The position numbers were made by a program, and so were the translations under genes. A DNA stretch of 64,000 nucleotides, taken from an uncultured Clostridia bacterium. GTDB lineage: Bacteria; Bacillota; Clostridia; TANB77; CAG-508. Each line of letters begins with the position of its first letter. Position 1 is the first letter of the stretch. Below the pieces are notes generated by a model that was not told the DNA's origin, did no database searches, and worked only from the letters and a program-made list of their open reading frames with translations. Positions 30,971-31,810 of the stretch are shown in pieces. The DNA lies in contig CAPOZU010000001.1 in NCBI GenBank assembly GCA_948676835.1, forward strand, positions 58,633 to 122,632, read 5' to 3'.

Positions 30971-31000
30971 GCGCCCCGTTATCATTTGATAACGGGGCGC
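30971..31000. terminator. GC-rich hairpin terminator downstream of the BI-1-like gene
   Basis: GCGCCCCGTTATC-atttg-GATAACGGGGCGC with flanking T tracts on both strands. Confidence 0.7.
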
Positions 31001-31022
31001 AGAGCCTTTTTCCATTTGAAAC

Positions 31023-31721
31023 TTATTTGGAAGATTTGCTGCTACTTCCGCCTCTGCCAAGCAGTCTGATGAAAATATTAATCATATCCAAATACAGACC
31101 AGCGCAGCTGTTTACAGCATTCTCCAGAGTTTTCCTTTTCTCCTGAGCAAGTGCCCAATCATAGCCCACATATCCGCAAAACAGAATCACAATGGCAAAA
31201 TCCCAAAGTGTCGGAATGTGGATTCTAAACAGCAACATGATAATCTCAACAATAATTGCTGCCGACAGGCAAATAAACAGTGTTTTGCCCATAGACAAAA
31301 AGACATCCGGTTTGACTGTTGAAAAACCAATCATAACCAAAGTCACAATTACAGTGATTACACATGCGTTCAGAATTGACACATTGCTAAACTGCGGTAC
31401 GCTGATTGCAAGCAGAGTTCCTACTGCAAATACAATGAGATGATATCCGAGAAGCGTTGTACCAAGCCCTCTCTCTCCGTGGCAGATTACAATTCCCGCA
31501 ATCGCCACCACAAAGTAGGCGACGATGAAGAGAAACGGACTTGCCTCATACAGCTGGGTGAAAAAATCGCTGGTAAAGGCACACATCATCGCATTGATGA
31601 TGAACCCCCAGAGCAGGACAAAGCCGATGCTCAGGTTGTAGGCCCGTGCAGACATTTTGTCACCTCTCGAATAGTTTCCGCGTGAACGGTACTCATTAGT
31701 TGTGTAATTGGCTCTCATCAT
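31023..31721 (-). CDS. Bax inhibitor-1/YccA family membrane protein, compositionally foreign (about 45% GC)
   Basis: Seven transmembrane helices and the C-terminal ...AGLYLDMINIFIRLLGRGG motif typical of BI-1/YccA. Start ATGATG at 31721 is preceded by AGGAGGA (the track start at 31769 is too long). Confidence 0.7.
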   Translation of the reverse strand: MMRANYTTNEYRSRGNYSRGDKMSARAYNLSIGFVLLWGFIINAMMCAFTSDFFTQLYEASPFLFIVAYFVVAIAGIVICHGERGLGTTLLGYHLIVFAVGTLLAISVPQFSNVSILNACVITVIVTLVMIGFSTVKPDVFLSMGKTLFICLSAAIIVEIIMLLFRIHIPTLWDFAIVILFCGYVGYDWALAQEKRKTLENAVNSCAGLYLDMINIFIRLLGRGGSSSKSSK

Positions 31722-31755
31722 AATTCCTCCTGTTATTATTTGAAAAGTAGGTTTC

Positions 31756-31810
31756 GTGAGATATCTCACAGTTACCTGTTTATTATATCATATTTTTATA
31801 CATAATACAA
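31756..31810 (-). promoter_or_regulatory. Promoter TTGTAT-17nt-TATAAT plus a perfect 14-bp palindrome GTGAGATATCTCAC (operator-like) upstream of the BI-1-like gene
   Basis: -35 at 31805-31810 and -10 at 31782-31787 on the minus strand. The palindrome at 31756-31769 lies about +6 to +19 relative to the predicted transcription start. Confidence 0.4.

Follow-up and report, generated by a model that had tools for sequence, protein, structure and literature searches.

An old single-gene transfer of a YetJ-like Bax-inhibitor-1 unit into AT-rich gut Clostridia, with a probable 5′ messenger RNA stem-loop in place of a repressor operator

How does a gene for a Bax-inhibitor-1 (BI-1) membrane protein with foreign codon usage come to lie among the housekeeping genes of a gut bacterium, and does the palindrome at its start mark it as the target of a repressor encoded elsewhere? 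The gene forms a single complete transcription unit on the minus strand, within positions 30971-31810 of a 64-kb stretch (the window) of contig CAPOZU010000001.1 from an uncultured Clostridia bacterium. Our analysis favours, with a probability of about 60%, an old single-gene transfer of a YetJ-like BI-1 unit that carries a stem-loop close to the 5′ end of its messenger RNA (mRNA), and not a repressor operator. We propose that a self-contained one-gene unit, made up of a sigma-A promoter with an extended -10 element, a short leader, a strong Shine-Dalgarno sequence, the coding sequence and an intrinsic terminator, entered the interval between plsC and typA in the common ancestor of a single genus of uncultured gut Clostridia, and that it would thereafter have been inherited vertically, with fast evolution of the protein and slow loss of the foreign codon usage. 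The 14-bp palindrome would then reflect, at the DNA level, a short stem-loop close to where the mRNA begins, which most likely protects or tunes the transcript in the manner of the 5′-proximal hairpins that act against 5′-end-dependent decay in Firmicutes.

The palindrome, GTGAGATATCTCAC, is perfect across its 14 bp and occurs once in the window, at 31756-31769; counted from the predicted transcription start it spans about +7 to +20, close to the perfect 14-bp palindrome at about +6 to +19 reported by a first-pass annotation of the sequence. As a bare string it is not beyond chance in the window, which holds 18 perfect 14-nt palindromes where Markov simulations give 14.2 ± 3.6, and one with at least six G/C where 0.5 are expected and 40% of simulations contain at least one. 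The looser pattern GTGAG-N2-8-CTCAC is found once against 0.08 expected. A functionless chance feature of an AT-rich leader would account for such palindrome counts; we nevertheless regard this explanation as barely credible, since every orthologous leader has the palindrome or hairpin, once and at a constant distance from the -10 box, even where the proteins are only 49% identical, with pairing preserved through substitutions, and it is on this conservation that we count it as real. None of the 45 native genes has a comparable hairpin at -75 to -12, and among random 64-nt windows 3.2% do. A search for further copies of the box, from which a regulon and its repressor were to be recognised, gave no second copy in the window and exactly one per BI-1 locus across about 470 kb of related loci.

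The variants of the element in the leaders are as follows, L numbers being our handles for related genomes and contigs.

GTGAGA-TA-TCTCAC: window, L004, L017 and L032; 2-nt spacer.
GTGAGA-TAT-TCTCAC: L001, L007 and L030; 3-nt spacer.
GTGAGA-ACT-TCTCAC: L062; 3-nt spacer.
GTGAGA-ATGT-TCTCAC: L063; 4-nt spacer.
GTGAGT-CTA-ACTCAC: L033; 3-nt spacer, with a compensatory change.
TTGAGT-AAAA-ACTCAA: L027 and L129, at a different chromosomal locus; 4-nt spacer, with a second compensatory position.
GTGAGA-TAT-TCTCGC: L031; 3-nt spacer, with a one-arm change that gives G·U in the sense RNA.
GTGAGG-ATT-TCTCAC: L128; 3-nt spacer, with a one-arm change that gives G·U in the sense RNA.

Across the 12 distinct leaders, 72 of the 72 cells in the six pairs are paired, with double changes at two pairs and two G·U pairs. 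The covariation score of 0.207 compares with 0.064 in shuffles, is reached by 1 of 500 shuffles and lies above all slid registers, in a hand-registered alignment with N-padded loops that holds few events and leans towards structure. RNAalifold predicted no structure on an automatic MAFFT alignment of the leaders, in which the 3′ arm was misaligned owing to the variable loop.

An RNA stem-loop is favoured because the spacing between the arms varies and G·U pairs are tolerated, which RNA allows and a dimer site of fixed geometry does not. The first-pass annotation had taken the palindrome to imply a dimeric repressor, that is, a DNA operator overlapping the transcription start through which a homodimer encoded elsewhere would gate the acquired gene. 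Such a reading comes readily from a perfect 14-bp dyad immediately downstream of the -10 box, whose half-sites presumably recall lac-type or CRP-type boxes (TGTGA..TCAC), and the symmetric double changes in L033 and L027 would fit a co-evolving dimer site. It is met by arm-to-arm spacings of 2, 3 or 4 nt, which would rotate the half-sites relative to each other, and by L031 and L128, where the symmetry of the DNA is broken on one arm and yet G·U is formed in the sense RNA. The single occurrence of the site within the loci searched, the lack of a regulator gene adjacent to it in any of these loci, and the unrelated hairpin sequences carried at the same position by distant homologs add to the case, and we consider an operator unlikely. 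With lac-type and CRP/FNR-type operators (TGTGA-N6-TCACA) the element shares a perfect dyad near a promoter, whereas its spacing is not fixed across orthologs, and it was on spacing that a CRP/FNR-type or lac-type box was rejected. The distinction corrects a tempting misreading, in that an apparent orphan repressor site shows the signature of an RNA hairpin, and it changes the experiment to choose.

The stem-loop, GUGAG(A)-loop-(U)CUCAC in the 5′ untranslated region, lies in the minimum free energy fold of every leader tested; in these folds the Shine-Dalgarno sequence stays accessible. The stem-loop has no U-tract behind it, for which reason we ruled out that the window hairpin acts as a terminator or attenuator. 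Stem-loops that stabilise mRNA from the 5′ end are an established device, found in the aprE leader and others (PMC3997798). The window leader has in common with the 5′-proximal stabilisers of the B. subtilis aprE and E. coli ompA/papA type a short stable hairpin near the predicted 5′ end, the lack of a U-tract, and a strong and unmasked Shine-Dalgarno sequence; it differs from them in having perhaps 6-7 unpaired nucleotides before the stem and in the conservation of the stem sequence itself.

Several of these features weigh against the stabiliser proposal. The predicted +1 leaves 6-7 unpaired nucleotides ahead of the stem, perhaps too far for full 5′ protection; the folding z-scores of single leaders are modest (-0.7 to -1.9); the compensatory changes amount to only about 3-4 independent events; and symmetric double changes are also expected of a co-evolving homodimer operator, so that they do not discriminate. 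Moreover, the stem sequence GTGAG/CTCAC is nearly invariant in the typA-linked clade and far better kept than the surrounding leader, a point that serves the operator reading as well and suggests that a protein recognises the sequence itself, in RNA or in DNA.

This conservation of the stem beyond its pairing also argues for a further alternative, that the stem-loop is the site of an RNA-binding regulator or ribonuclease by which a potentially harmful membrane protein would be controlled at the stage of translation or processing. The two-hairpin leaders of another subgroup, in which a T-run follows the first hairpin as in an attenuator, point the same way, as does a homolog whose partner gene encodes a Panacea antitoxin domain, a hint that certain members have to be neutralised. 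We hold this alternative to be possible but doubtful, as loop sequence and length vary freely, neither the Shine-Dalgarno sequence nor the start codon is convincingly sequestered, and no Rfam family matches the leader, the only matches being sub-threshold and terminator-like. The subgroup in question is more distant (43-49% identity) and has different hairpins, CTAACA..TGTTAG and AATGAC..GTCATT, at the corresponding place in the leader. In L064, L134, L136, L139 and L155 both stand upstream of the BI-1 gene: AATGAC-loop-GTCATT directly after the -10 box and followed by the T-run, then CTAACA..TGTTAG with co-varying extensions.

The proposed stem-loop is one part of a compact unit, whose features are listed here in the order of transcription.

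31805-31810, minus strand: -35-like hexamer TTGTAT, read from the sequence, 17 nt upstream of the -10 box; TTGnAn is kept in orthologs.
31782-31790, minus strand: extended -10 element TGaTATAAT, from the sequence and ortholog leaders.
31756-31769, minus strand: leader palindrome GTGAGATATCTCAC, read as a stem-loop from conservation and pairing.
31726-31731, minus strand: Shine-Dalgarno sequence AGGAGG, invariant in the leader alignment (A1), 7 nt upstream of the ATG at 31718.
31023-31718, minus strand: Bax1-I/TMBIM coding sequence, 231 amino acids and stop (MRANY...), from the Pfam match, the YetJ profile match, AlphaFold and Foldseek; public record P0072.
30960-31000, minus strand: intrinsic terminator with perfect 14-bp arms GCGCCCCGTTATCA/TGATAACGGGGCGC (30971-31000), then a T-rich tail; inverted repeat I5.
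30960-31815, minus strand: the whole monocistronic islet of promoter, leader, coding sequence and terminator, from the GC profile, between the plsC terminator and the typA promoter.

The -35-like hexamer matches three of the six consensus bases and was hence unlisted in the promoter consensus scan. In alignment A1 the TATAAT core is identical in 11 of 12 leaders (TATACT in L063) and the G of the extended TG is invariant. From the -10 box we place the predicted +1 near 31776/31775; 12 nt separate the box from GTGAGATATCTCAC, and a 24-nt A/T-rich stretch separates GTGAGATATCTCAC from the Shine-Dalgarno sequence. Two start codons stand in tandem (ATGATG, 31716-31721), and we assign the start to the ATG at 31718 because homology and the spacing from the Shine-Dalgarno sequence support it. 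The second in-frame candidate, at 31721, was created by a T-to-G change where orthologs read attATG, and leaves a gap of only 4 nt to the Shine-Dalgarno sequence; orthologs start at the ATG at 31718, and public gene calls hold both 231- and 232-amino-acid versions. The C-terminus, ...LYLDMINIFIRLLGRGGSSSKSSK, is as first annotated. The islet is flanked upstream by the 3′ end of plsC and downstream by the typA promoter (30930-30902, 12 of 12 consensus matches) and then typA itself; the neighbouring genes typA, plsC and cmk are all housekeeping genes.

At the far end of the unit, orthologs keep the terminator stem through compensatory changes, and its apex ATCAAATGAT is common even to copies at another locus. 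Because the stem and apex are kept in this way, promoter, leader, coding sequence and terminator appear to behave as one inherited module. The apex is conserved as ATCAAATGAT or ATCGAATGAT, above a GC-rich stem base that co-varies (window 30971-31000; L001, L004, L007, L017, L027, L033, L062 and L063), and it is better conserved than the BI-1 coding sequence.

The foreign composition of the gene, put at about 45% GC in the first annotation, is borne out by its codon usage. Its GC content is 44.0% and its GC content at third codon positions (GC3) 0.49, against 0.08-0.12 in the neighbouring genes and, three small outliers apart, 0.07-0.16 in the other long open reading frames of the window (n=53). 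Only four reading frames in the window exceed a GC3 of 0.2, the BI-1 gene among them, and all are small monocistronic units. GC at codon positions 1 and 2 is ordinary, and the anomaly is therefore confined to synonymous sites. CTG makes up 46% of leucine codons against 1% in native genes; TTA (0 of 26 leucine codons) and ATA (0 of 25 isoleucine codons) are missing, where their native shares are 66% and 50%; every proline codon is CCG, every glutamine codon CAG and every glutamate codon GAG. In all, 90 of 232 codons (39%) are rare in the host, with a share below 10% in native genes, and an index modelled on the codon adaptation index (CAI) stands at 0.23 against 0.64-0.83 for native genes. We propose a donor whose codon usage resembled that of mid-GC Firmicutes, with a preference for CTG, ATC, CCG, CAG and GAG. 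In genomes of 45-60% GC the subfamily has native composition, but its copies there are only 35-43% identical to the window protein; the range for the nearest homologs of native composition is 35-46%.

The distribution of the gene points to the time and place of its arrival. Relatives were found by scanning species-representative genomes with the neighbouring PlsC, and the host clade consists of genomes assembled from metagenomes of uncultured gut Clostridia (mouse, rabbit, chicken and human) around 'Candidatus Scatovivens'. A BI-1 gene separates plsC from typA in the four closest genomes as well as in numerous Logan/ENA contigs (L030-L033, L017, L001, L062 and L128), and is missing from this site in 16 more distant relatives. 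In the 11 of these whose spacers were read (L036-L042, L046, L051, L055 and L059) the empty spacer measures 122-231 bp and the plsC terminator abuts the typA promoter; the other five (L043, L052-L054 and L058) were judged empty from tblastn coordinates, with plsC and typA adjacent and no BI-1 match. Genomes more distant still have unrelated genes of native composition at the site. The exact protein recurs in 177 blocks of public assemblies, always in an identical context, and one public contig is identical to the window across 6.7 kb; contamination or misassembly of the genome was ruled out, as the same arrangement is found in many independent assemblies.

We take the gene to be of horizontal origin because its place between plsC and typA is empty in sister genera and none but the closest relatives carry it. 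The comparisons support an old insert, fixed genus-wide and inherited vertically, and not a recent arrival. At four-fold sites the distances of BI-1 and its flanks are 0.32 against 0.07-0.37, 0.56 against 0.11-0.49, and 1.38 against 0.28-0.80, so that the synonymous divergence of BI-1 is about 1-2 times that of the flanks, and BI-1 and PlsC give broadly concordant identity matrices, in each of which L033 stands farthest from the rest. At the protein level BI-1 evolves much faster than its neighbours: identity among orthologs is 50-93% for BI-1, 86-95% for PlsC and 97-99% for TypA. Of the horizontally acquired, repressor-gated copy that had been described, the acquisition stands, on the foreign codons and the empty sister sites, with an old date, and the repressor gating is not supported. 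No flanking repeats, target-site duplications, integrase or tRNA were found at the borders of the islet.

The plsC-typA spacer also varies in length and content within the genus (L001 914-3291, L031 3423-3902, L062 903-3709 and L017 5742-6001). Some genomes have extra genes upstream of BI-1, namely an opposite-strand reading frame of 159-169 amino acids and a protein of 508-559 amino acids (DUF2142 in L062), of which only a remnant is left in L017; more than one gene may have arrived in the original insert.

Amelioration of horizontally acquired DNA, a concept reportedly due to Lawrence and Ochman, provides the frame in which the codon usage of the orthologs can be read. As GC3 falls from 0.51 to 0.19 along the ortholog series, the count of TTA codons grows from 0 to 14 and that of ATA codons from 0 to 11 in a smooth progression; this is the picture expected of amelioration, with the window allele the least ameliorated. 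The islet shares with other ameliorating genomic islets its atypical GC3 and codons, its absence from the site in sister taxa and a graded convergence on host usage, and differs from them in consisting of one gene, in being old and fixed, and in losing its foreign composition more slowly than a simple model would have it. Three points count against a simple history of this kind. No donor candidate closer than about 45% identity was found, so that none can be named; GC3 stays at about 0.33-0.51 in the typA-linked orthologs although their flanks differ by 0.3-0.8 per four-fold site; and under a simple two-state neutral model of amelioration GC3 should have decayed much further than it has.

The same persistence of GC3 in all typA-linked orthologs is what would be expected if the codon usage were maintained, either by selection, for instance where codon mismatch throttles a pore-forming protein, or through recurrent replacement by incoming copies of the cassette. 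All four foreign-looking islets of the window have non-host codon usage, the coding sequence and terminator move together between loci, and the subfamily has an elevated GC3 in other AT-rich hosts, in L162 (0.52 against 0.08) and L155 (0.34 against 0.16). The smooth gain of host codons as GC3 falls speaks for amelioration instead, and synonymous distances that track the flanks make wholesale replacement unlikely. Parsimony polarisation of synonymous changes between GC and AT did not separate BI-1 from its flanks (p = 0.35), by a method that is visibly biased; we judge it so because the flanking-gene control gave an impossible equilibrium, with weak-to-strong changes far exceeding strong-to-weak. 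We regard maintenance as a tentative alternative of low probability. L162 is a metagenome contig (JAEIGA010248691.1) whose BI-1 homolog has 40% identity to the window protein and a GC3 of 0.52, the contig's other reading frames standing at 0.08.

Old transfer with slow amelioration is the history that we prefer, and the locus represents a clean case of it, a single gene moved into extremely AT-rich gut Clostridia, with an empty-site control and graded orthologs. The ortholog series can be used to measure the rate at which foreign codon usage decays in AT-rich genomes. As a whole the case is tidy and fairly ordinary: the protein belongs to a known family, the situation is of a familiar kind, and the function of the conserved hairpin in the leader is putative. 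Nothing in it overturns current knowledge, and the question that merits follow-up is why the four islets keep non-host codons for so long.

What the unit encodes is confirmed as a divergent member of the Bax-inhibitor-1/TMBIM family with a seven-helix fold, as the first reading of a BI-1/YccA protein with seven transmembrane helices had it. The Pfam family Bax1-I (PF01027) matches with E = 4e-19 (69.7 bits against a cutoff of 34.1; profile positions 13-204 of 207), and no NCBIfam model matches the protein. An AlphaFold model built on an alignment of homologs (predicted local distance difference test 87.4, predicted template modelling score 0.81) shows a disordered N-terminal tail of about 24-25 residues and seven long helices:

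residues 25-60, predicted helix 1
residues 62-81, predicted helix 2
residues 86-110, predicted helix 3
residues 113-136, predicted helix 4
residues 138-164, predicted helix 5
residues 170-194, predicted helix 6
residues 199-224, predicted helix 7

When this model was compared with the Protein Data Bank (PDB) by Foldseek, the top eight matches were all B. subtilis YetJ (template modelling scores 0.59-0.80), the better chains reaching 0.71-0.80 with a root-mean-square deviation of about 3 Å across some 208 residues, and the next match had a probability of 0.06. A single-sequence search of all PDB chains with the BI-1 protein gave no match; only a profile of 45 homologs reached YetJ, at 6.7e-5. 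In the profile alignment the two aspartates of the di-aspartyl pH sensor in the last two helices of YetJ, D171 and D195, which we took from the PDB titles of the matched structures, align to D188 and D212 of the window protein, numbered D187 and D211 in the 231-amino-acid version (GYDW against LYD(171), LYLD against LYLD(195)), and both are invariant in the 45 homologs. YetJ (BsYetJ; PDB 4PGR, 4PGW and 6NQ7-9), a pH-sensitive Ca2+ leak channel, is thus the sole solved fold that matches the window protein, with seven helices and both aspartates in common; the two are only about 18% identical, and the window protein has the disordered tail in addition.

Because both sensor aspartates are invariant in the subfamily, the protein most likely forms a pH-gated cation (Ca2+/H+) leak pathway like that of YetJ. 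In E. coli YccA, a member of the BI-1 family, modulates FtsH, and TMBIM5 acts on the m-AAA protease. E. coli YccA and mitochondrial TMBIM5 belong to the same Pfam family as the window protein and share with it a cytoplasmic N-terminal tail, whereas no sequence-level subfamily link to YccA was demonstrated and ftsH is not nearby. One report describes TMBIM5 as coupling ion exchange to inhibition of the FtsH homolog AFG3L2 (PMC9379554). By family analogy some interplay of the window protein with FtsH may be envisaged. The bacterial BI-1 family is poorly understood, and a subfamily that has the YetJ sensor residues and is widespread in gut metagenomes and phage-like contigs makes a reasonable functional target.

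An abortive-infection context, which had also been suggested, finds no footing in the window, where the neighbours are housekeeping genes and the BI-1 protein matches nothing in PADLOC (E <= 0.1) or PHROGs. Homologs do occur on 58 IMG/VR contigs, at 24-46% identity (34-46% for the 45 closest) and with native AT-rich composition. Dozens of them, those with homologs at 34-46% identity (L070-L114), are large (40-220 kb) and AT-rich; in L078, the sole IMG/VR neighbourhood examined, the homolog at 5028-5648 has a RecD2-like helicase, a Clp-type protease and a dNMP kinase nearby. In L069 (1492-2591) the end of a SocA/Panacea antitoxin-domain gene (5.4e-9, which passes the Pfam cutoff) and the start of a BI-1 homolog share 4 nt; this homolog is 46% identical to the window protein and its context looks mobile (PcfJ, VWA and ASCH). 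The pair may be toxin-antitoxin-like, with BI-1 as the toxic partner; BI-1 proteins are not mentioned in the paper that defined Panacea-linked toxins. Homologs on large phage-like contigs, and one translationally coupled to a Panacea-domain gene, hint at a broader reading in which the subfamily takes part in phage-host or toxin-like conflict, the hairpin and the codon mismatch would limit a potentially pore-forming protein to low, conditional expression, and all four islets would be kept at non-host codons; we consider this improbable.

The three other foreign-looking islets are likewise monocistronic, each with its own promoter and a strong terminator hairpin:

4145-4435, plus strand: GC3 0.52.
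28621-28941, plus strand: GC3 0.36.
34242-34919, minus strand: GC3 0.31.

Their CAI-like indices are 0.18-0.32, and none has a match in Pfam, NCBIfam, PADLOC or PHROGs. Comparison of all four islets gave no target-site duplications, inverted repeats or common end motifs, and an integron- or transposon-like cassette mechanism is not supported, there being no repeats or ends in common. Two of the islets were compared across genomes and occur only in the closest relatives, at 41-66% identity in most and 85-91% only in the nearest genome (L032), their flanks being 85-99% identical. The leader of the 225-amino-acid islet gene also has a 6-bp hairpin, GTACTG-tttttg-CAGTAC, between promoter and Shine-Dalgarno sequence (34943-34960, minus strand).

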